Source: Longimicrobiales bacterium
Lineage (GTDB): Bacteria > Gemmatimonadota > Gemmatimonadetes > Longimicrobiales > Gaopeijiaceae
Assembly: GCA_965219445.1 (NCBI GenBank)
Contig: CBDCNQ010000005.1
Coordinates: forward strand, 1,472,001 to 1,536,000
Length of the DNA: 64,000 nucleotides
Direction: 5' to 3'
Both the position numbers and the translations under genes were made by a program. The notes under the pieces are model-generated. The model saw nothing but the letters and a program-made list of their open reading frames with translations. It made no database searches and was not told where the DNA came from. Positions 38,852 to 49,364 of this stretch are shown here, in pieces (position 1 is the stretch's first letter; each line of letters begins with the position of its first letter).

Positions 38852-40039
38852 TCAGAAGTACGTGGCGAACCCCAGTTGGAAGCCCGCCGTTCGGATCGTG
38901 GGGTTCCCCACGAAGTCCCGCGTCCAGTGGTAGCGATAGTTGGCACGGAACACCGTGCCCGCAGTCGGGCGAAAGCTGGCTGTGAGGACAATGGCTGACA
39001 CCTCGTCGAAGATCTTCCGGCCCGTCGAGTCGAATGTACCTGTGTTGTAGTCGATGTGCTCCAGCCGTAGGCCCGCGCTCACCAAAGCGTCGTCGTAGCC
39101 AAGGAAAGACGGCCGCCAGACCGGCGCCACGAGATCGAGGTACCCGCCCCACTGTCCTTCCCCGAAGACCTCCTCCATTCCAGGAGGCACGTCCACGGAC
39201 GTGAGGGCCAGCTCACCCCTGACGGTCAGCATGCCCACGGTCGTCCCCAGGTCCAGGGCGGCAATCCCAAGCCAGCGCCGATCATCCACCTCCTCCCCCT
39301 CGACCCGAAATGCATTGTAGTAGCCACCGTAGTACGACAGCCCGACTTCACCCAAACTGCTGTCGTGGAACGCGATGCGCCCCGTGACGGCCGGTGAACC
39401 GTTGTTGTCCTCCTCGAGCATCTCCTCGCTCTTGCCGCTGGAGATGTCCGTGCGACCCAGATCATTGTCGACCACGCCGTCCTGGAGCCCGTTGGTAAGG
39501 TAGACGTCGTATGAGAACGTGCGCGAGCCGAAGAAGAGCTTTCCGTATGCGCCCCCACCCACCTCCGACAGCGTCGAGGGGACGATATCGGTCGTGACGA
39601 GAGGGCGCTCCACAAAGTCCCACCGGGGGCTGTCGTGGTTCTGATTGAAGTAGCCCAGGGGGGGCAGGATCACACCCACCCGCAGGACAAAGGCAGGGTC
39701 TAAGATCACGTCGACCAGAGCCGTCTCAAGGGCGATCTCCTCGGTGCCGTGCTCGAACTCGAGCTCGGACAAGAAGCGCACGCGCTGGCTGATGGAGGAG
39801 AAAAAGAAGAGGTTGAACCGGCGCAGCTCCATGGAGAAGCCGTCGGTGACACCGTCTTCCACGAAGTAGTTCGTGTTCCCCTCTATGTAGCCCCCGATGG
39901 AGGTGGCACTCACGGAGCCGATGAAGGGCCGGTTGTAGATGCCCTCCTGGCCGATGATCGTGTCGGCCTGTCCGGCGGCGTGGCCGGTGATAAAGGCCTG
40001 GAGCACGACGCAGAGGAGCCAGCCTCCCTTCCCCCTCAC
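38852..40039 (-). CDS. Outer-membrane beta-barrel/porin-like protein
   Basis: ELEFEHG, FNQNHD, alternating beta pattern, C-terminal ATYF; GTG overlaps the Rieske stop. Confidence 0.8.
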   Translation of the reverse strand: MRGKGGWLLCVVLQAFITGHAAGQADTIIGQEGIYNRPFIGSVSATSIGGYIEGNTNYFVEDGVTDGFSMELRRFNLFFFSSISQRVRFLSELEFEHGTEEIALETALVDVILDPAFVLRVGVILPPLGYFNQNHDSPRWDFVERPLVTTDIVPSTLSEVGGGAYGKLFFGSRTFSYDVYLTNGLQDGVVDNDLGRTDISSGKSEEMLEEDNNGSPAVTGRIAFHDSSLGEVGLSYYGGYYNAFRVEGEEVDDRRWLGIAALDLGTTVGMLTVRGELALTSVDVPPGMEEVFGEGQWGGYLDLVAPVWRPSFLGYDDALVSAGLRLEHIDYNTGTFDSTGRKIFDEVSAIVLTASFRPTAGTVFRANYRYHWTRDFVGNPTIRTAGFQLGFATYF

Positions 40040-40476
40040 GACGTCCCCCTGTCGACCAGCCAAATAGTGATCGAGTCTCGGTCGTGGCTGACGCGGAAGC
40101 GCGTCAGCGGCGCCTCGGCGGGCCCCTGCAGCACCTCCCCCGTAAACGCGAACTCGCTGCCGTGGCAGGGACAGACCAGACGGTCGCCTTCGGGCTCGGG
40201 CTGACACTGCCTGTGCGTGCACTCCACCAAGACCGCTGAGTACGCCCCCGGATCGGTCGTCCGCAAATAGACAGGTTTCGGCGTGCGGCTGCTCTCCACC
40301 AACACCCCAACGTCTTCGCCCAGAGCGGCGCGGGGCAGGACCAGGCGCCCGGGCTCTTCGGTCGCCCGGACGTACCTTAGGCCCACGCACCCTCCCGACG
40401 AGGCTACAAGACACGCACAAGCCGAGACAACGGGGAAGCGGCCCAGAAAGTCGCGCCGATCCATGGGCGCCCTCAT
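40036..40476 (-). CDS. Tat-exported Rieske [2Fe-2S] protein
   Basis: RRDFL; CTHRQC; CPCHGSEF; GPA. Confidence 0.92.
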   Translation of the reverse strand: MRAPMDRRDFLGRFPVVSACACLVASSGGCVGLRYVRATEEPGRLVLPRAALGEDVGVLVESSRTPKPVYLRTTDPGAYSAVLVECTHRQCQPEPEGDRLVCPCHGSEFAFTGEVLQGPAEAPLTRFRVSHDRDSITIWLVDRGTS

Positions 40477-41744
40477 CAGAGGGACCTCAAGAAGGTAAGG
40501 AGCTGTCCTTGCGAATCCGGCGTCAGCCCGCGGAAGGCGTCTCGGCTGGCCGCACCCTCACCGCCGTGCAGCTCAATGGCGTCCCGAAGCGTGCCGGCCC
40601 GTCCGTCATGGAGGTAGAAAGCCTTACCTCCTTGGAAGTTCTGTTGGATCCCGATGCCCCAAAGCGGCGGTGTCCTCCATTCGCTCGTCAGGGCGGATCC
40701 CTCCGTGTATCCGTCATCCAAGTCGGGCCCCATGTCGTGAAGGAGCAGGTCCGTGTAGGGATGGAAGACCACTTCGCTCAGAACCGCGATGTCCGAGAGG
40801 CCCGTCCTGAGGGTCGGGAAGTGACAGCCGGCACAGCCGATGTCGGTGAAGAGCTGCTCGCCGGCGCGCACGTCGGGGTCGTTCTCGTCCCGGCGGGCCG
40901 GGACCCGGAGGGTCTTCAGATAGAACACGACGTTCGCCACCACGCTGGACGCGACCTCGGGGTCCGGTGCGTCGTCCGACGTGCGAGCGCCTTGCAGGGG
41001 GTTGAACAGGTCCTCCACAAGAAGATCGCTCGTGACGCCCATGTCCTGCAGGTAGGCCCCCACCGTCTGATGGAGAAGGTTGACCGTCAGCGCCTTCTTG
41101 CCGAAGCGGCCGATGTAGCGACCGTCCACCAAGGTGCCCCTGGCGGCGGGACCAGGGCTGGACTGGGCCTCGAGCGCGACCACGTTCTCGATGAGGTCCG
41201 ATGGTTCGTGGAGCTGTACGCGACCGCTGATGCCGTCTCCGTCCAGGTCGTCCGGATCTGCGACGGCGAGGAGCGTGGCGTCGTCAACAGCATCGAGGAA
41301 GCCCAGGCCCGTTACCGCAGGAGGCATGAACGTCGCCACCCCGGTGGCCGCCGCGGGTAAGGTCTCCGGCGGATGGCCCGCGATGGATCGATTCTGGAGT
41401 TGCGGACCGCCGAACCCAGGCATCGGATCGAAGCCGTTGACGGTGGACCGGCCGAAACGTCGGAAGTTGAAGGCCGGGTGCCCCTTTCCGTCGCCGACGT
41501 GACACTGCTCGCACGACGTTGCGACGAAGATCGGGCCCAAGCCGTCGGAGACCGAGAATCGGCGTCCGAACTCCTCGTCGCCTAGGAGGTGAAGTCGGAT
41601 CTGGCCCGAGGTGAGGCCCTCGACGGTACCATCGAGGGCCTCGTTGTCGGGCGGAAGACCGGGCGTGACGATATCGCAGGCCGACAGGGCGACGACGAGA
41701 ACGGGCAGAACGGTGACCCACCCGGCGCGGTGGTGGCCCATCAT
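40476..41744 (-). CDS. Di-heme oxidoreductase family (DUF1111-like) lipoprotein
   Basis: Lipobox LSAC; CEQCH; GRFGKKA; CAGCH; TDLLLHDMG; WRTPPLWG; LHDGRA. Confidence 0.9.
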   Translation of the reverse strand: MMGHHRAGWVTVLPVLVVALSACDIVTPGLPPDNEALDGTVEGLTSGQIRLHLLGDEEFGRRFSVSDGLGPIFVATSCEQCHVGDGKGHPAFNFRRFGRSTVNGFDPMPGFGGPQLQNRSIAGHPPETLPAAATGVATFMPPAVTGLGFLDAVDDATLLAVADPDDLDGDGISGRVQLHEPSDLIENVVALEAQSSPGPAARGTLVDGRYIGRFGKKALTVNLLHQTVGAYLQDMGVTSDLLVEDLFNPLQGARTSDDAPDPEVASSVVANVVFYLKTLRVPARRDENDPDVRAGEQLFTDIGCAGCHFPTLRTGLSDIAVLSEVVFHPYTDLLLHDMGPDLDDGYTEGSALTSEWRTPPLWGIGIQQNFQGGKAFYLHDGRAGTLRDAIELHGGEGAASRDAFRGLTPDSQGQLLTFLRSL

Positions 41745-41753
41745 ACTTCCAAG

Positions 41754-41794
41754 TTTAGGCTAGCCTCAAAGTAGAAAGTTTAGGCTAGGCTAAA
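41754..41794. promoter_or_regulatory. Two tandem DtxR/MntR-like palindromic boxes
   Basis: TTTAGGCTAGCCTCAA (41754) and TTTAGGCTAGGCTAAA (41779), 25 bp apart, just upstream of the di-heme gene. Confidence 0.7.
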
Positions 41795-41806
41795 TTGAGC
41801 GCCACG

Positions 41807-42078
41807 TCAACACGGCTGCGCGAGTCCCACACGCCCGAGGGGTATCCGCTCCAGGTTGGGGTGCGCGACGTAGGCTCCCGGGACCACGTGGTTCACAAGG
41901 ATGTCAGCACGGCCGCGCGGCCGAGGTTCCGGCCGGACCCCGTGACTAGAGCGACCTTCCCCTCGACGGGCCGAGCGGACGTAGACAGCGTGGGACCGAC
42001 AAGCGGCAGCGCCATCGCCGCCCCCATTCCGCGTAGAGCCGTCCGTCGTGAAAGCGGTTTCCCTCTGCCGATCTCCAT
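41807..42078 (-). pseudogene. Eroded Tat-signal SDR oxidoreductase remnant
   Basis: SRRTAL..GKVALVTGSGRNLGRA, then after a frameshift DILVN-HVVPG..LERIPLGRVG; most of the core is deleted. Confidence 0.7.
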
Positions 42079-42109
42079 GACTCGACTCCTGTTAGGCCGG
42101 CATCGGTCC

Positions 42110-42736
42110 TCAAGGAAGCTCGATAGCCGGGTTGACGTAGTCGGCCGCGAGGACCCGGTCGGGATCAGGACGCACGCTCAGGTAATCCACATGGTCGGGG
42201 ATGTTGGACCAACCATGCGGCACACCGGCTGGGATGATGACGACGTCGCCCACCTTCACGTCCTTGCTCTGCACATCACCCACGATTGTTCCGCTGCACG
42301 ACGGTCCGTTCAGAATGGTCGCCCCACGGCCGCCCGGTGCGGACTGGCGCCCGTTCATGATCTGGCCGCCGGTGACAAGTGTTCCACCGCCCGAGATGAT
42401 GACGTACGTCTCGGTCTGATAAAAGTGCAGGCCCCCCCTCGCGCCGCTCGGCGGACCATCGGATATTCCGCAAATCCGGGCCGGTGGCAGGGCTGCACCA
42501 CCACCACCACCGCCACGTCCGGCGCCGCCCGTGGCTCCTCGGTGAATCACGCCCACGGCGAGGTTGAGCTTCCCGATGTCCCGGCTGATGATCTGCCGAT
42601 CGGTCCCTGGAAGGGCATTCACCACCTGGACCTGCTCCGCAGTGATGTAGGTGGCAGACATGAGAGTCTGGGCAGTCACGCCGACGGGCAGCGCGAGAAG
42701 CGGTAAGACAAGCGTTGACCACGCTAGCGTTCTCAT
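42110..42736 (-). CDS. Secreted cupin-fold protein
   Basis: Signal peptide; TETYVIISGGGTLVTGG; VGDVVIIPAGVPHGW; VRPDP. Confidence 0.85.
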   Translation of the reverse strand: MRTLAWSTLVLPLLALPVGVTAQTLMSATYITAEQVQVVNALPGTDRQIISRDIGKLNLAVGVIHRGATGGAGRGGGGGGAALPPARICGISDGPPSGARGGLHFYQTETYVIISGGGTLVTGGQIMNGRQSAPGGRGATILNGPSCSGTIVGDVQSKDVKVGDVVIIPAGVPHGWSNIPDHVDYLSVRPDPDRVLAADYVNPAIELP

Positions 42737-42921
42737 CGAACCCTCCTTGCTGAGTGGGAGGCCCAAGCTACGGGGCATGAGAAGGCGGGTCAAACGGGTG
42801 AGCTGAGACGCGTTCGGGGCGGTGGTGAGCAAGCTGTGGTTTCCTTGCTCACCAACCGTGTTGGTCGTACCCTGACTTCAGCGATCGCCTTCTCACTGAG
42901 CCGTACGAGCTGCCCCCAAAG

Positions 42922-45225
42922 ATGCCAGCACTGAGGAAGTTCCTCGACGAGATCCGCCACCCCTCCCTGTGGCAGGTGCTAGGTGTTTACCTAGCCGGTG
43001 GATGGGCGGTCTTCACGGTGATCCTCGACGTGTCCGAAGCGCTGCTGCTCCCGACGTGGGTCGTCCGGTACTCGCTAGCGCTACTGCTCGTCGGGCTGCC
43101 GATCACCCTCGTCACGTCGCACGTGCAGCAAGGGCTCTCGAAACGTGGCGTCGTGCCGCACAAGGGTATCCGACGCCTCTTCACGTGGCGGAACGCGCTC
43201 GTCAGTGGCGTGCTGGCTTTCGCGGCACTGGGGTTCGTTACGGCCGTGCGGATCGTGATGCCCGCCGCGCCGCCACAGCTTCCCGCGGGGAGTGCCGTGC
43301 CGCAGCTAGCGATCTTCCCAGCCACGGTCCGAGGGGGCGCCGACCCGGTCCTGCACGAGGGAATCGTAGACCTGCTACGTGGGAAGCTGGCAGTGATCTC
43401 CAACCTGCAGATCGTCGACCCCGGGACCGTGATCAAAGCCGCCGGCATGCAGTCGCAGGAGGTGGTGGTCGATGTGGCCCGTGCAGCTACCATCGCCAGC
43501 GAGCGTGGCTGGACTCTCTTCATACTCCCGGTAATCACGGCAAGCGGGGGAGAAATCCGCCTCCAGGCGTCTCTCTTCGACGTCGAGTCCACAGAGGAAC
43601 CGTTGGTCCTCGCCGAATCCGGGGGTGACGCCCTCGAGGTCTTCGCGCATATCGACGAGCTCGCCGTCGATCTCGTTCTCGCACAGTTCGGTCGGGCGAG
43701 CGCGCGGCTGGTGCGTTCCGCATTCCAGATGACCACTTCCGTTACCGCCTGGGAGAACTTCCTCCGGGGCGAGCAGGCGATGCGGAACTCACAGCACGAT
43801 GTGGCGGTCGAGGCGGACAACACGTTCGCGCTGGCGGAACTCCGGACCGCGATCGTCGCTGCCCTCATGGAAACGGACGGATCGTTCACGCATCTCGTGG
43901 GATCGGCGCCAAACGCGCTTCCGAGGGCTAGTGCACTCGTTGATCGACTCGACGAGCGTGACAGGGAGTTCCTCGCGGCTTACGAAGCGTTCCGTGCCGG
44001 CGAAGGCGACCGCGCCGAGGCGGCGTTCGAGGCTATGCTCATCGAACGGCCCGGAGACGTCGAGGCCCGTTTCTTTCTTGCGCAAACGCTCATGCGACTC
44101 AACCCAGCCCGGGGGCGCTCGGTGTTCGAAGCGCGGGCCGTATTCGAGGAGGTGCTGCGAGCCGACCCCGGCTTCACGTGCCCTATATGACCACTCTTAC
44201 AGCTCGTCGGGAGCGAGCATGACGCGGTAGCCTCAGACAGCCTCAACGCAATGCTTAAAGTGGTCCGCGGCTCGGGAAGACCCAATCATAATGACATGAT
44301 CAATACCGTCATGCGGGGTGACGATCAAACAGCCGAGGTGCTTTTCGCTCGCTTTGACGCCCGGCCGGCTGCCGTCAACTTGGCGTTTCCGATTCACGTC
44401 GCCGCCTGGGGCGGAGACTTTTCCATGGCGGTCAGGCTGGCCCAGGGATACACTCGGTCGGCGAACGCCGATCCGATCCGGCTCGCGGGGCACCTCAACC
44501 TCGCACGGCTCTTCGTGGCCCACGGAAGGTGGCGAGCCGCCGACGTCGAGCTCGAACGGGCCGCCGACGTCGACCTCGAGCAGGCACGCATGACACGAGC
44601 CGTCCTGGTGACCTTGCCTTTCCTATCCATCCCGCGCGACGACCTCGTGAGTGTGATGGAGGAGCTGCAGCGCTGGGCACCCTCAGTCCCGGAACAGGGA
44701 TCACCGCCAGAACGCGCGTACGATCAGCACGCTCGCCTCTATTTCATGGGTTTGCTGGCCTCGAAGTTGGGCGACGAGACGGGGGCTCTGGAATACGCGG
44801 ACGCGATCGAGGAACTCGGCGACGTTGCCGGGACCGCGGTACCTGGAGAGCTGGCGACAACGCTTCGGGCGGATGTCGCGTGGCGGCAGGGGAGCTCTCC
44901 TGCAGACGTTCTGCGCGCTCTCGAGCCCCTGCGCGGACAGGTCCCCGCGGTCCTCTGGGATCACCCGGCTTTCGGACAGGAGCACGCTCGGTATGTGCGG
45001 GCTTCGGCCCTCCACCGGGCCGGAGAGGACGCTGAGGCGCTTCGATGGCTCGAAGACACGTTCACCCTCACTCCTGGCACGGTGTACTACTTGGCTCCTA
45101 CCCGGTACCTAGCGGCCCAAGTGCTGGATGCCTCCGGTCGGGGCGAGCAGGCAGGCGAAGCCCGCGCAACGTACCGCGAACTTTGGGCGGATGCCGACGG
45201 GGGGATTTCGTTGCCCGGAGGCTGA
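42922..45225 (+). CDS. Membrane-anchored TolB-N-like/TPR protein with in-frame TGA at 44188-44190 (candidate selenoprotein; otherwise a split gene)
   Basis: ORFs 42922-44190 and 44251-45225 are in one frame with no other stop; junction DPGFTCPI*PLLQLVG; 17-nt hairpin 11 nt after the TGA. Confidence 0.7.
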
Positions 45226-45266: not shown

Positions 45267-46496
45267 CTAGTTACCGTTCAGACGGATGAACTTCTGGATC
45301 CGGTGGCCGGTCTGCACCTCGCCGGTGTAGAGATTTCCCTGGGAATCGAAACCCATGTAGTGGAGCCAATCGAAATGGCCGGGTTGTTTTCCACCCGTAC
45401 CCCAGGAGTAAACAGGCTCGAGCGTCGCCCTATCCAGAGCCCACACCTTGTTGTTGGTACCGTCGGGCACGTAAAGGAACCGCTGCTCGGTATCGAGCGG
45501 GTCGAACTCGGCGCCCCACGTGGATCCGGGCCCGTACGTCTGCGGAGCGAGTTCGTTCTCCATGATGTAGGTCCCGTCCAACTCGAAGACCTGGAAGCGG
45601 TTGCTGGGACGGTCGCTCACGTAGACCCGCCGGTCGTTGGAGATAGCCAATCCGTGGACGGGTGTACGCCACGTGGTTGTTCGGGGAGCGTTCGGGTCCC
45701 ACGGGCCCGGATTCTCGTCCTTTGGAACTTCACCATAGGCTCCCCAATGTCGTTTGTACTCACCGGTATTCGCATCGAAGACGACCAGCCGCCGATTGCC
45801 GTAGCCATCCGCTACGTAGATTTCGTCGGTCTCGGGGTCCACCTCCATGGTGGCGGCTCGGTTGACCGAGTTCGGGTCATTGCTGCCCTGGCTCACACCG
45901 ACGTCCCCGATCTTAAGCACCAACTCGCCGTCCTGCGTGAACTTCATCATGTGATGGTCGTCGCCTCCGTTCCCGGCGACCCACACGAATCCCTGGTAGT
46001 CCACATGAATTCCGTGCTCGCTGTTGAACCACTGGTATTCCCCGCCGGGATCATCGCCGCCCCAGGCTTGGATGACTTCCCCCGCCGGGTTGAACGCCAA
46101 CACGGGTGGCGCCGTCGTGCAGCAGAGCGATTGGACCGGATCGCTGCCCCACGATTGGTCTCGGGTGGTCATCGGCGGCGTCGAGCCGGCATTCGTACCC
46201 TGCACGGTGAACGGCCTGTGGATGATCCAGAGGTTGTCATTGCTGTCGATGGAGGTGCCGGCGACCTGCCCTATGATCCAGTTGTTGGGAAGGGGTTGGG
46301 GCCAGAACGGGTCGACCGCGAACTGCGCCACGCCTTCCGGCACCCCGGGGCCCGACGCGTCCGCGGGCATATTGGGCATGGAAGACGCCATCGCGGAAGA
46401 CGACATCCCGCCGTCGTCCATCCCGCATGCCGATGTGGCGAGGACCATTATCGATGTTACCAAGACTGCGCGAATCCAAGCTTGAGATCGGTTCAT
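45267..46496 (-). CDS. NHL-repeat beta-propeller lipoprotein (peptidylamidoglycolate lyase-like)
   Basis: VDPFWPQPLPNNW, EHGIHVD, YVADGYGNRR, DSQGNLYTGEV. Confidence 0.88.
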   Translation of the reverse strand: MNRSQAWIRAVLVTSIMVLATSACGMDDGGMSSSAMASSMPNMPADASGPGVPEGVAQFAVDPFWPQPLPNNWIIGQVAGTSIDSNDNLWIIHRPFTVQGTNAGSTPPMTTRDQSWGSDPVQSLCCTTAPPVLAFNPAGEVIQAWGGDDPGGEYQWFNSEHGIHVDYQGFVWVAGNGGDDHHMMKFTQDGELVLKIGDVGVSQGSNDPNSVNRAATMEVDPETDEIYVADGYGNRRLVVFDANTGEYKRHWGAYGEVPKDENPGPWDPNAPRTTTWRTPVHGLAISNDRRVYVSDRPSNRFQVFELDGTYIMENELAPQTYGPGSTWGAEFDPLDTEQRFLYVPDGTNNKVWALDRATLEPVYSWGTGGKQPGHFDWLHYMGFDSQGNLYTGEVQTGHRIQKFIRLNGN

Positions 46497-46591
46497 TGTT
46501 CGTCACCATGCAGAGGAATTTTTCCAAACGAAGCAGGACAAAGTAAGGCGGATATCGCCCCCTGCCAACCGACCGGAGGGATTTTCTGGGG

Positions 46592-46607
46592 GGCCCCGTT
46601 CGGGGCC
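46592..46607. terminator. Hairpin after dnaN
   Basis: ggccccg-tt-cggggcc directly after the dnaN stop. Confidence 0.4.
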
Positions 46608-47723
46608 TCAGTCGAGCAATCGCAGTGGCATCACCAGGCAAAGATAGTCTTCCGCCTCTTCGCCCTCCGCCGGAACCGGCTCGATGGTCGCGGCCCGCTC
46701 TGGAGCCTTGAGCGTGATTTTTACCTCGTCGGTGGACATGTACTTCAGCACCTCGAGTAAATACGCCGCATTGAATCCGATTTCGATTCCCTCTCCTTCA
46801 TACGTCAACTCCAGCTCGTCCTCTCCCTCGCCGAGATCCGGTGTGAGGACGTTCAGATGGACTCGATCGGACTCGAAAGCCATGCGGATCCGGTGCGTTT
46901 GGTCGCTCGCAACCACCGCCATACGGCGGACCGCGGATGTCAGCGCACCCTTTGCGACGATCGCAAACTTATCGTTGTCCTTCGGAATTACTTGTTCGTA
47001 GTTGGGGTATGTCCCTTCAATGAGCCTGGTATAGACTTCGGTGCCATCCGCCCGAAATCCGAGATGGTTACCGCTCTTGGCGACCTCGAGGGTCTCCTTA
47101 CTCTCGAAGAGACGCTGAACTTGCTGAAGTGCGATCGGGGGTACTATGAAGTCTTCGCTAGGGGCGCTAGACGAACCCGCAGCGACGCCCTTCCTAGCAA
47201 GGCGGTGCCCGTTCGTCGCAACCATACGCATGTGCCCGTCTCTCAACTCCCAAAGCACACCATTGAGGATCGGCCGGCTCTCCTCGGAGGAAACCGCAAA
47301 CGCGGTGTTCTTGATCAAACCGTGGAGGTCTCCACCTTGAACGCTCCATCCCTGCTCGAAGTCCACCTCCGGCAGTGTGGGAAAGGCATCACTTGGAAGA
47401 CCATTGAGCTTGAAGTGGCTCTTTCCGCACCTCAATTCGATTTGATCGCCTCGGGTACTCAACTCCACGGGTTGCTCCGCTAATTCCTTCACGATTTCCT
47501 GGAGCTTCTTTCCAGGCGCAGTGATGCTCCCTTGCTCCTTCACTTCCGCGGGAACCCATACGCGAACTGCTACATCCAGGTCAGTGCCACTCAACGAAAT
47601 CCCGTCTTCTCCGGCTTCGAAAAGGATATTCGAGAGAACGGGAAGAGTTGTCTTCGTCGGAATGCTCGCAGAAACGGCGGCAAGCCCCGTATGCAGGTTC
47701 TGCCGAGTGATCAAGCAATTCAT
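46608..47723 (-). CDS. dnaN: DNA polymerase III beta clamp
   Basis: TLPVLSNIL, SRPILNG, ATNGHRL, GTYPNY, IGFNAAYL, VMPLRL. Confidence 0.97.
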   Translation of the reverse strand: MNCLITRQNLHTGLAAVSASIPTKTTLPVLSNILFEAGEDGISLSGTDLDVAVRVWVPAEVKEQGSITAPGKKLQEIVKELAEQPVELSTRGDQIELRCGKSHFKLNGLPSDAFPTLPEVDFEQGWSVQGGDLHGLIKNTAFAVSSEESRPILNGVLWELRDGHMRMVATNGHRLARKGVAAGSSSAPSEDFIVPPIALQQVQRLFESKETLEVAKSGNHLGFRADGTEVYTRLIEGTYPNYEQVIPKDNDKFAIVAKGALTSAVRRMAVVASDQTHRIRMAFESDRVHLNVLTPDLGEGEDELELTYEGEGIEIGFNAAYLLEVLKYMSTDEVKITLKAPERAATIEPVPAEGEEAEDYLCLVMPLRLLD

Positions 47724-47759
47724 CGAGCCTCCACGGCGTCCTGGTTATGAACAGTGCCT

Positions 47760-47945
47760 AAATAGAAAATACTGAGTTATAGAAAAAAACTAGTAGTAGT
47801 AGAGAGTGTAAAAATGTTTAGAAACCGGCGTTCGTTAATGGTGGCAAGGAATCCGAATCTTTCCTCTTTTTGTGGAAACGAGAGAATATCAGTATTTCCA
47901 TCCGAGCATGTGGAAAAGGAGTAAGAAATCCTCGGATTTTCCACA
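47760..47945. other. Replication origin (oriC): DnaA boxes, DnaA-trios and AT-rich tract between dnaA and dnaN
   Basis: TGTGGAAAC 47871, TGTGGAAAA 47909, TTTTCCACA 47937; (TAG)4 at 47791-47802 next to an A-tract. Confidence 0.85.
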
Positions 47946-47984
47946 CACCGTACATGCTTCAAGCGAGTCACGTCCCTCGTCCAG

Positions 47985-49364
47985 TCAAGATCCTCTCCCG
48001 ATTTCTGCACGTACGCCCTCAACCGTTTGGCGGAACTCGGCGTCGACGCTCATCGCGTCCTCGACTTTGCGAATCGAGTGGATTACCGTCGAGTGATCAC
48101 GGTCCCCGAATAGCTGACCGATGTGTACGAGAGAGTAGTCCAACAGATCTCTGATCAGGTACATGGCAACCTGGCGAGGGACCGTCAAGTCTTTGGTCCT
48201 TCGCTTCGAACTGAGAGCTTCTTCGCGGACTTGCCAGCGTGTCGCGACCGCTCTGCGGATGTGTTCGGCACCCAACACGGAGCCGGTGTTCCCCGAGGCA
48301 CTCCCGAAGCTTCCATGTAGCGCCTTGCGTGCAAGATCCACGGAAATCTCTTGATTCGTAATGGATGAATAGGCCAGTAACTTGATGATCGCCCCTTCGA
48401 GTTCGCGGACCGAGGACGTACAAAACTGTGCGATGAAGTCCATCACGTCGTGAGAGACCATGAGTCCGTCGTCGGCGGCCTTCTTGCGTAAGATGGCAAC
48501 CCGGGTTTCGTAGTCGGGCGACTTAATGTCGGCGACTAGGCCCCACTCGAACCTCGAAATGAGCCTCTCCTCGAGGCCGGGAATCTCCTTGGGAGGCCGA
48601 TCGCTCGTGAGTACGATCTGCTTTCGGGCATCATAGAGGGCGTTGAACGTATGGAAGAACTCCTCCTGGGTGCGCTCCTTGCCCCTGAGGAACTGAATAT
48701 CGTCGACGAGCAGGAGGTCCATCTGGCGGTATCGCCGACGGAACTCGGCCGTGGTTCCCTGCTGAATGGCAGTGACGAGGTCGTTGGTGAACTGTTCGCT
48801 TGGGACGTAGGCGATCCGCATGGTGGGGTCGGCCAGTAGCACGGCGTTCCCGATCGCGTGCATGAGGTGCGTCTTTCCGAGACCTACACCGCCGTAGAGG
48901 AAAAGAGGGTTGTATGTGAGGGCCGGTTGGTCGGCGACGGCATGGCACGCGGCCGTGGCGAGTTGATTGTTGTTTCCCACAACAAATCGCTCGAACGCGT
49001 AACGCTCGTTCAGTGACGGGGGAGGTCCGTCCCGGTCGGCCCCAGGTGCCGGCGGGCCGGCTCCAAGTGCGTGCGGGGTGACCTCGATGGTGGGCATCGG
49101 GGGCGCCGCGGCCGGGTCGGCGCAACGGAAGGTAAGGGTCAGAGGGCGACCCAGGATCTGCTGAATCACCTCCGAGAGGAGGGGTCCGTACCTATGGCCA
49201 ATCCACTCGACATGGAATTGGCTCGGTACCTCGACAAGAATCTCCGAGTCGGTGACCCCCACCGCGGAGGTGCCGGCGAGCCACGTGCGGTATGTCTGTC
49301 CCTGGAGTCTGTCTCGGGTTGCCTCGAGAACCCGGGACCAGAGCTCGTCGGCCGTGAACTCCAT
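47985..49364 (-). CDS. dnaA: Chromosomal replication initiator DnaA
   Basis: YNPLFLYGGVGLGKTHL, DDIQF, QEEFFHTFN, VRELEGA, RDHSTVIHS. Confidence 0.98.
   Translation of the reverse strand: MEFTADELWSRVLEATRDRLQGQTYRTWLAGTSAVGVTDSEILVEVPSQFHVEWIGHRYGPLLSEVIQQILGRPLTLTFRCADPAAAPPMPTIEVTPHALGAGPPAPGADRDGPPPSLNERYAFERFVVGNNNQLATAACHAVADQPALTYNPLFLYGGVGLGKTHLMHAIGNAVLLADPTMRIAYVPSEQFTNDLVTAIQQGTTAEFRRRYRQMDLLLVDDIQFLRGKERTQEEFFHTFNALYDARKQIVLTSDRPPKEIPGLEERLISRFEWGLVADIKSPDYETRVAILRKKAADDGLMVSHDVMDFIAQFCTSSVRELEGAIIKLLAYSSITNQEISVDLARKALHGSFGSASGNTGSVLGAEHIRRAVATRWQVREEALSSKRRTKDLTVPRQVAMYLIRDLLDYSLVHIGQLFGDRDHSTVIHSIRKVEDAMSVDAEFRQTVEGVRAEIGRGS

Follow-up and report, generated by a model that had tools for sequence, protein, structure and literature searches.

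A Candidate Selenoprotein Family of Membrane-Anchored TolB-N/TPR Sensors in Gemmatimonadota

A gene of 767 codons with a single in-frame TGA was identified in 64,000 nucleotides of DNA from a Longimicrobiales bacterium of the phylum Gemmatimonadota (GenBank assembly GCA_965219445.1, contig CBDCNQ010000005.1, positions 1,472,001 to 1,536,000, forward strand). This whole stretch is referred to here as the window, and positions are window positions unless a contig is named. Judged from sequence comparison, the gene (42922 to 45225, + strand) almost certainly encodes a selenoprotein in which selenocysteine (Sec, U) is decoded at UGA codon 423. The gene very probably belongs to an uncatalogued selenoprotein family of transmembrane sensors. 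A preliminary description had put the gene forward as a candidate new selenoprotein, a proposal now strongly supported by the conservation of the TGA, by Cys homologues, by a covarying hairpin downstream of the TGA, and by the Sec machinery of the genome. Beyond that description, most members of the family are receptor kinases, some carry a UxxU form of the motif, and the codon before the TGA is invariantly AUA.

Reading Frame and Sequence Support

The gene appears as two open reading frames (ORFs) in one frame, 42922 to 44190 (422 amino acids) and 44251 to 45225 (324 amino acids). Translated with TGA as U, it has 767 codons, and U423 (44188 to 44190, + strand) is the sole internal TGA, in the context DPGFT-C-P-I-U-PLLQLVG. 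The ORF coordinates and the translation thus bear out the frame as first described. Cys420 is the only Cys of the protein. There is no Shine–Dalgarno-like (SD-like) word upstream of the ATG at 44251, in agreement with the lack of an obvious ribosome binding site noted earlier. Contigs assembled from runs X1 and X2 span the TGA with 0 differences, so that these contigs (not raw reads) show TGA rather than a sense codon. Run X1 is possibly the source sample.

Conservation of the In-Frame TGA

Among 61 related genomes, a TGA lies exactly at query position 423 in three genomes of the same genus (74–83% identity) and in two genomes of another family (about 30% identity, two copies each). The stops in two other matches of this search are located elsewhere, at positions 273 and 121. 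A profile search with the motif region in 401 genomes of the class matched 138. Of the 19 top matches, 18 carry the TGA; these 18 come from 15 genomes (one of them, G192, unpublished) of five families. The remaining top match is a Cys homologue with the motif CTLC (locus L062).

A pattern scan was made for D-P-x-F-x-[C/U]-P-[I/L/F]-TGA in one genome per species. This pattern presupposes neither the hairpin nor the Ile codon. It returned 76 loci, composed of 47 homologues (47–246 bits) and 29 chance hits (15 bits or less) that served as a control. The homologues are titled as Gemmatimonadota groups in 46 of 47 cases; one is titled only "uncultured bacterium".

Pooled and de-duplicated, the searches gave 51 distinct TGA loci, down to about 30% identity, mostly from Gemmatimonadota and from at least five families. 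Downstream of the TGA, the frame is open for at least 340 codons in 44 of the 51 loci, and three loci leave their contig. Homologues with the same stop and an in-frame downstream ORF, which the preliminary description had suggested looking for, are therefore present, and the frame is kept on both sides of the UGA as in selenoproteins. Eight of the 51 loci contain two TGAs (U-P-I-U, the UxxU form). The plain nonsense mutation that had been named as the alternative is excluded by the occurrence of the same TGA in 51 loci.

Cysteine Homologues and Tree

The 193 database proteins examined can be sorted by where they end. There are 47 that stop exactly at CPI (44) or CPL (3), and five that stop just before the first motif position (UxxU type). 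Twelve are full-length CxxC proteins, and a thirteenth CxxC protein was found in a larger alignment. A scan of metagenomes for the Leu codon of the three CPL proteins returned one chance hit only.

A FastTree tree was constructed from 139 rows, with the motif and 12 columns on either side left out. The tree is midpoint-rooted and gives no direction. In it, a single branch (support 100) unites 39 Sec rows with 11 CxxC rows and is free of Cys-less rows. The Sec label requires four changes on the tree, and Sec and Cys forms are interleaved, so these forms have interconverted. Cys is the only sense codon seen at the UGA column within the branch; the choice between Cys and Trp left by the preliminary description is thereby settled in favour of Cys. 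In all, the homologues with Cys at the UGA column are L062 (CTLC) and the 13 CxxC proteins, 11 of them in the branch. Two CxxC proteins (P0084 and P0136) lie outside the branch, which suggests either an independent Cys gain at the same helix cap or a misplacement in the tree.

SECIS Hairpin

The TGA is followed by an 11-nucleotide spacer (CCACTCTTACA, 44191 to 44201, + strand) and a hairpin, GCTCGT-CGGGA-GCGAGC (44202 to 44218, + strand), both with the sequence first described. The hairpin is a predicted bacterial Sec insertion sequence (SECIS) with a 6-base-pair stem and a 5-nucleotide loop. The minimal SECIS of E. coli fdhF, a 17-nucleotide hairpin after an 11-nucleotide spacer, has the same geometry. 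In the gap-free alignment A2, the spacer is fixed in length and variable in sequence. The hairpin begins at +12, exactly 11 nucleotides after the TGA, in every locus, and 50 of the 51 loci have it complete.

Covariation was tested on 50 loci (47 distinct), with L097 left out. Of the stem cells, 99.6% pair, and slid registers pair at 33–62%. The bottom pair is CG, GC, or UA, the next pair is CG or UA, and the top pair is CG or UG. The conservation and covariation check proposed earlier thus gave compensatory changes at two pairs. Changes in the bottom pair alter the first base of a codon and so are not free. The second base of the loop is always G and is followed by G or U. The full stem occurs in 0 of 30 non-TGA paralogues and in 0 of 29 chance hits. 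Across the genome, a 6-base-pair stem at +12 with G at loop position 2 follows 83 of 119,241 TGAs, and among the 60 of these 83 that were listed, the window TGA alone has at least 300 open codons on both sides.

The consensus model of the bacterial SECIS (bSECIS), as outlined in PMC13188914, has a 3–9-nucleotide loop, a 4–16-base-pair stem, G in loop positions 1–2, a UGA-to-loop distance of 16–37 nucleotides, and a free energy of −7.5 kcal/mol or lower. The hairpin fits this geometry with a 5-nucleotide loop, 6 base pairs, and 17 nucleotides from UGA to loop (26 nucleotides for the first UGA of the UxxU form). It resembles the consensus described there as a short stem-loop after the UGA with G[G/U] at the start of the loop; it differs in that the window stem has no bulged U and in that the codon before the UGA is invariantly AUA. 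The isolated hairpin has an energy of −7.3 kcal/mol in the window, and −9.0 and −8.9 kcal/mol in the commonest forms of the family, to be read beside a −7.5 kcal/mol limit from a model whose folding window differs from this calculation.

The hairpin is made of TPR-helix codons (TPR, tetratricopeptide repeat; L-A/V-x-x-E). In Cys-less paralogues, the L-A-x-x-E codons already provide 2–5 of the 6 pairs; this suggests that the SECIS was recruited from codons that the helix had before. In six UxxU loci (L120, L122, L124, L126, L161, and L167), an 8-base-pair hairpin spanning the second UGA can form immediately 5’ of the SECIS. This hairpin is broken in L107 and weakened in L149.

AUA Codon Preceding the TGA

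The codon directly before the TGA is the rare Ile codon ATA (44185 to 44187, + strand). It is present at this place in 51 of 51 loci, compared with 57 of the 1182 other Ile codons of the same genes and 2599 of 36,824 genome-wide. The codons at −2 and −3 vary. Among 201 genomes, FdnG-type genes with Ile before Sec were found in five, and in four of these the Ile codon is ATA. One FdnG-type formate dehydrogenase lies in the genome of the window itself (L175, G000:C5:799772, + strand); its Ile-Sec pair is ATA TGA and is followed by a SECIS-like hairpin.

These counts speak for a role of AUA in decoding, perhaps because the ribosome pauses there or because the tRNA in the P site gives SelB an advantage over RF2. 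Against a Sec-specific reading is that ATA precedes ordinary TGA stops in 10 of the 22 Ile cases of the genome. Two other accounts were rejected. A general rule of A before a Sec UGA does not hold, as the −1 codons of the SelD, Prx-like, and ArsM-like Sec genes of the genome are GGG, TGG, and GGC. The hairpin over the second UGA requires a PMWD context, is intact in six of eight UxxU loci, and is missing from the window; it therefore fails to account for the invariance. No published effect of AUA before Sec was found in titles and abstract openings.

Selenocysteine Machinery and Other Sec Genes

The genome (G000, 92% complete) contains tRNA-Sec, SelA, a SelB wing domain, and SelD with its own in-frame TGA; selA, selB, selC, and selD, whose presence had been left for checking, are therefore all there. 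TGA terminates 972 of 1788 long frames and is the main stop codon, so the genome is not recoded. In-frame TGA codons with a downstream hairpin are also found in FdnG-type, Prx-like, and ArsM-like genes. A codon-model screen of the selenoproteome (172 candidates, 90 of them listed) gave a noisy result and served solely to pick out these three as controls. The peroxiredoxin-like gene (L176, G000:C5:880037, + strand) encodes UxxC (YRGYW-U-PFC) with a 7-base-pair hairpin and is a known kind of selenoprotein. The ArsM-like methyltransferase gene (G000:C4:262917, + strand) has its in-frame TGA near the C-terminus, with a strong hairpin.

Protein Architecture and Topology

The full gene, with its one Sec codon, encodes a three-helix anchor, a TolB-N-like domain, and a TPR solenoid. 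Three transmembrane helices are predicted by a hydropathy scan (42970 to 43260, + strand; approximately residues 17–38, 47–68, and 93–113), in keeping with the membrane anchoring claimed earlier. No Pfam match was obtained in this region. The loop between helices 2 and 3 is rich in K and R, which predicts an N-in, C-out topology that would place the Sec domain in the periplasm.

The TolB-N-like alpha/beta domain (43303 to 43680, + strand; approximately residues 128–253) was identified from secondary structure and from a match to TolB (1c5k; Z 13.3, root-mean-square deviation (rmsd) 2.4, 124 residues). It is followed by a TPR-type helical solenoid (43690 to 45183, + strand; approximately residues 257–754) that is continuous across the TGA and is matched by Pfam TPR_19. 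An AlphaFold model of residues 121–767, with Sec modelled as Cys and 139 sequences, has a mean predicted local distance difference test (pLDDT) score of 91.3 and a predicted template modelling (pTM) score of 0.91, and shows the alpha/beta domain and then the continuous solenoid. The TolB-N/TPR scaffold of the preliminary description is thus upheld by the TolB match, by Pfam, and by the model.

In the model, the C420-P-I-U423 motif (44179 to 44190, + strand) caps a TPR helix with Cys420 at the cap and U423 in the first turn (the helix spans model residues 302–311, or residues 422–431 of the protein). In this model (mean pLDDT 91), the surroundings of the motif are an all-helical solenoid and not a thioredoxin fold. 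Structure searches gave only generic TPR, SARP, and TolB matches, and the ESM Atlas gave generic TPR clusters. In the alignment of the family, no Cys or His other than the pair is invariant in the branch.

The 51 loci can be sorted by what precedes the outer domain. Thirty have an N-terminal kinase and one membrane helix, 11 have a three-helix anchor as in the window, and 10 are partial or unclear. HRD and DFG are kept in 30 of 30 kinases, and all eight UxxU forms are kinases. The window protein lacks the Hanks-type kinase domain found in these 30 loci. In the kinases, Lys plus Arg averages 4.2 before and 2.2 after the membrane helix, and from this positive-inside bias the Sec domain is predicted to face outward. 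The same outer domain, at about 25–35% identity, occurs in other Gemmatimonadota TolB-N/TPR membrane proteins, which are kinase-, SARP-, or three-helix-anchored. Most of these have no Cys at this helix (87 of 139 rows, alignment A3), and the Sec/Cys motif marks one branch.

Relative to orthologues, the window gene has a 21-nucleotide in-frame deletion at 43803 (+ strand), corresponding to seven amino acids of a TPR helix and located at a short direct repeat. A contig of run X4 contains the 21 nucleotides, and the X1 contig stops at this spot. The gap may be a strain deletion or an assembly collapse.

Comparison with Known Systems

Table 1 of PMC13188914, a 2026 catalogue of 119 families, does not contain the host protein anywhere in the table, and no NCBIfam model passed its cut-off, in line with the earlier remark that this scaffold is not known as a selenoprotein family. 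The words "TPR" and "tetratricopeptide" have 0 occurrences in the main text of that paper. The families of Haft and Tolstoy 2025 were compared as they appear in the same table. Pfam found TPR only and no catalogued selenoprotein domain in the window protein, and no NCBIfam selenoprotein model matched at E 0.01 or better. The passages seen of deep-Sep (PMC12013277) and BSepDB (PMC13326102) hold no mention of the family, and no paper on such a family was found in titles and abstract openings, a search that leaves subscription journals outside. The predicted decoding is canonical, and the selenoprotein family of membrane sensors is judged to be real and, in the sources covered, uncatalogued.

Several families in Table 1 of PMC13188914 likewise have CxxU or UxxU with CxxC homologues: GrdA, SelW-like, AhpD-like, the FCYXU TonB-dependent receptor, an FmdB-family regulator, and a mercuric-transport-like family. 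None of these is listed there as a TPR solenoid, a TolB-N/TPR sensor, or a transmembrane kinase. Selenoprotein O, in the same table, resembles the kinase members in joining a kinase-like fold and a Sec motif in one chain. It differs in having a pseudokinase fold, whereas the kinases of this family are Hanks-type with HRD and DFG intact and have Sec across the membrane in the TPR domain. The window member, unlike Selenoprotein O, has no kinase.

The periplasmic domain of E. coli CadC (3ly7) also has an alpha/beta and a helical domain outside the membrane, in a one-component membrane sensor. Of the 50 fold matches listed, it alone gives a long alignment that takes in both the alpha/beta part and the helices up to the motif (Z 11.4, rmsd 10.6, 227 residues), a weak match. 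A periplasmic disulfide is reported to hold CadC inactive (PMC3096576). CadC differs in the spacing of its cysteines (64 residues), in lacking Sec, and in acting through DNA binding. The comparison is meant as a working analogy and not as a sign of membership.

Gene Neighbourhood

No conserved operon was found beside the family loci, with the exception of an NHL gene downstream within the genus (two orthologous loci). In the window, the NHL-repeat gene lies 3’ of the gene and is followed by dnaN and dnaA (45267 to 49364), which places the gene approximately 4 kb from dnaA. Upstream is a divergent cluster (38852 to 42832, − strand) of cupin-like, di-haem oxidoreductase (DHOR), Rieske, and porin-like genes that is not conserved beside orthologues. 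A promoter and terminator scan at the locus gave nothing informative. A search for RNA runs carrying the gene listed none, a result that is neutral as to its expression.

ArsM-like methyltransferases adjoin three family kinases (L107, L142, and L149). An ArsR-rhodanese fusion lies beside L107 and L149, and a SigH-like extracytoplasmic function (ECF) sigma factor lies beside L107 and L142. Directly adjacent to the UxxU kinase of L149, the ArsM-like gene (~5400, − strand) itself contains an in-frame TGA close to its C-terminus, together with a strong hairpin. Other class I methyltransferases occur at L085, L120, L160, and L171. Elsewhere in the genome, 17 tRNA genes are densely arrayed in approximately 2.4 kb (G000:C3:31920-34298).

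Discussion

In the proposed mechanism, SelB-GTP-Sec-tRNA would bind the hairpin 11 nucleotides after UGA423 and insert Sec, giving one 767-residue CxxU chain. This chain would be anchored in the inner membrane with its TolB-N/TPR domain predicted to lie outside. In 30 of the 51 loci, a single helix links this outer domain to a Hanks-type Ser/Thr kinase predicted to be cytoplasmic, so the domain would be a receptor input domain. The window member has the three-helix anchor, lacks an output domain, and would need a partner for signalling. The helix-capping Cys/Sec pair would toggle between a selenenylsulfide (a diselenide in the UxxU form) and the free selenolate and thiol. This toggling would shift the solenoid and relay periplasmic redox or electrophile status across the membrane, loosely like the CadC disulfide. 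Taken as a whole and given Sec, a reversible Se–S redox switch of a Sec receptor is slightly favoured. The lack of another invariant Cys or His speaks for a redox pair with two centres rather than for a site in which a single chain would supply four ligands.

Several observations weigh against this interpretation or the evidence for it. The window gene lacks seven amino acids present in its orthologues, four loci have a short downstream frame (L084, L093, L096, and L171), and 35 of the 51 loci have an in-frame ATG two codons downstream of the TGA. The compensatory cells of the stem represent a handful of events, and the significance of the shuffle test, in which 0 of 500 shuffles matched the pairing score, is overstated because the loci are related. 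The energy of the hairpin is ordinary (z 0.12; 105 of 200 shuffles fold as well; 48-nucleotide region, −12), so the case for the hairpin rests on comparison. SelA, the one component examined in the relatives, was found in 15 of the 15 genomes of the class sample that bear the TGA, a weak test since 349 of the 401 class genomes have SelA. The CadC match is weak for a helical repeat, with the cysteine positions not equated, and no conserved neighbourhood points to a signal.

Among readings that keep the selenoprotein, the most serious competitor, possible but clearly the less likely, is that the CxxU is a soft metal(loid) site for Cu(I), Hg(II), Ag(I), or As(III), with two ligands per chain and four per dimer, and that the receptor reports exposure. 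MerP and CopZ bind metal through a helix-capping CxxC, to which the motif bears a likeness. Met is found at U+2 in 64% of Sec rows and 23% of CxxC rows compared with 1% of Cys-less rows, the arsenic-related neighbours of L107, L142, and L149 include one that is itself a candidate Sec gene, and the families in Table 1 of PMC13188914 include metal-binding ones that have C/SxxU and UxxU. The ArsM link, however, consists of three of the scanned loci, two of them close relatives, without an enrichment control; the window neighbours are cupin, di-haem oxidoreductase, Rieske, and NHL proteins; and there is no invariant third ligand. It is improbable that the Se–S bond is only structural, or that the recoding itself is the sensor through the ratio of full-length to UGA-truncated protein. 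UGA termination would leave the anchor (or kinase) with half of the outer domain, the invariant AUA places the decoding context under unusual selection, and the UxxU forms need two recoding events from one hairpin. On the other side, CxxC versions have arisen repeatedly in the branch, which indicates that the chemistry of the pair counts even where there is no truncation, and AUA before the FdnG Sec in four of five genomes indicates that it is not specific to the receptors.

Readings without Sec fare worse. It is very improbable that the UGA is a true stop of a conserved split gene whose second half restarts as its own protein. The ATG two codons after the TGA would allow this, and the enrichment of ATA before ordinary TGA stops (10 of 22 Ile cases) is what ATGA overlaps would give. 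That ATG is absent, however, in the window and 15 other loci; an SD-like word precedes the first ATG in only two of 51; and Met is found at that place also in uninterrupted CxxC proteins. Another ATG overlaps the TGA in the −1 frame; a conserved short frame starting from it was rejected, as its length ranges from 4 to 360 codons. Judged from its sequence, the second half does not begin with an obvious export signal, so a restarted half would have no route to the periplasm and could not join the first. A split gene also leaves the Cys at the column, the second TGA at the other Cys position, and the hairpin unexplained. The least probable readings are that the TGA arose by nonsense mutation or sequencing error, or that it is translated as Trp through a changed code or leaky readthrough. 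A few family loci are frameshifted, the window copy has its 21-nucleotide deletion, and the Cys-less paralogue L012 has Trp at the aligned column. The same TGA nevertheless recurs in 51 loci of at least five families, TGA is an ordinary and frequent stop of the genome, and the branch has Cys and no other sense codon at the column. Mutation and sequencing error are already refuted.

Significance

Most bacterial selenoproteins in the catalogue are redox enzymes or proteins that handle metals. With a Sec motif in the input domain of transmembrane sensors and receptor kinases, selenium biology would reach into signal transduction, and the TPR solenoid would join the folds that bear Sec. In the databases these genes stand broken in two, and 52 or more entries are such truncated halves. 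The family suggests how a SECIS may come about from codons already present in a helix, and it carries an AUA-before-UGA rule that is unexplained. With its natural series of Cys-less, CxxC, CxxU, and UxxU forms and a kinase read-out, it makes the question of why Sec is used rather than Cys testable in a non-catalytic setting. Rather improbably, Sec may serve both as sensing chemistry and as a translational gate. The AUA-UGA-SECIS cassette would then tune the completion of the outer domain, selenium supply would set the ratio of full-length to truncated protein and hence kinase output, and the UxxU form would be an encoded diselenide switch made by two recodings from one hairpin. If true, the recoding step itself would have been made into a signalling system that senses selenium.

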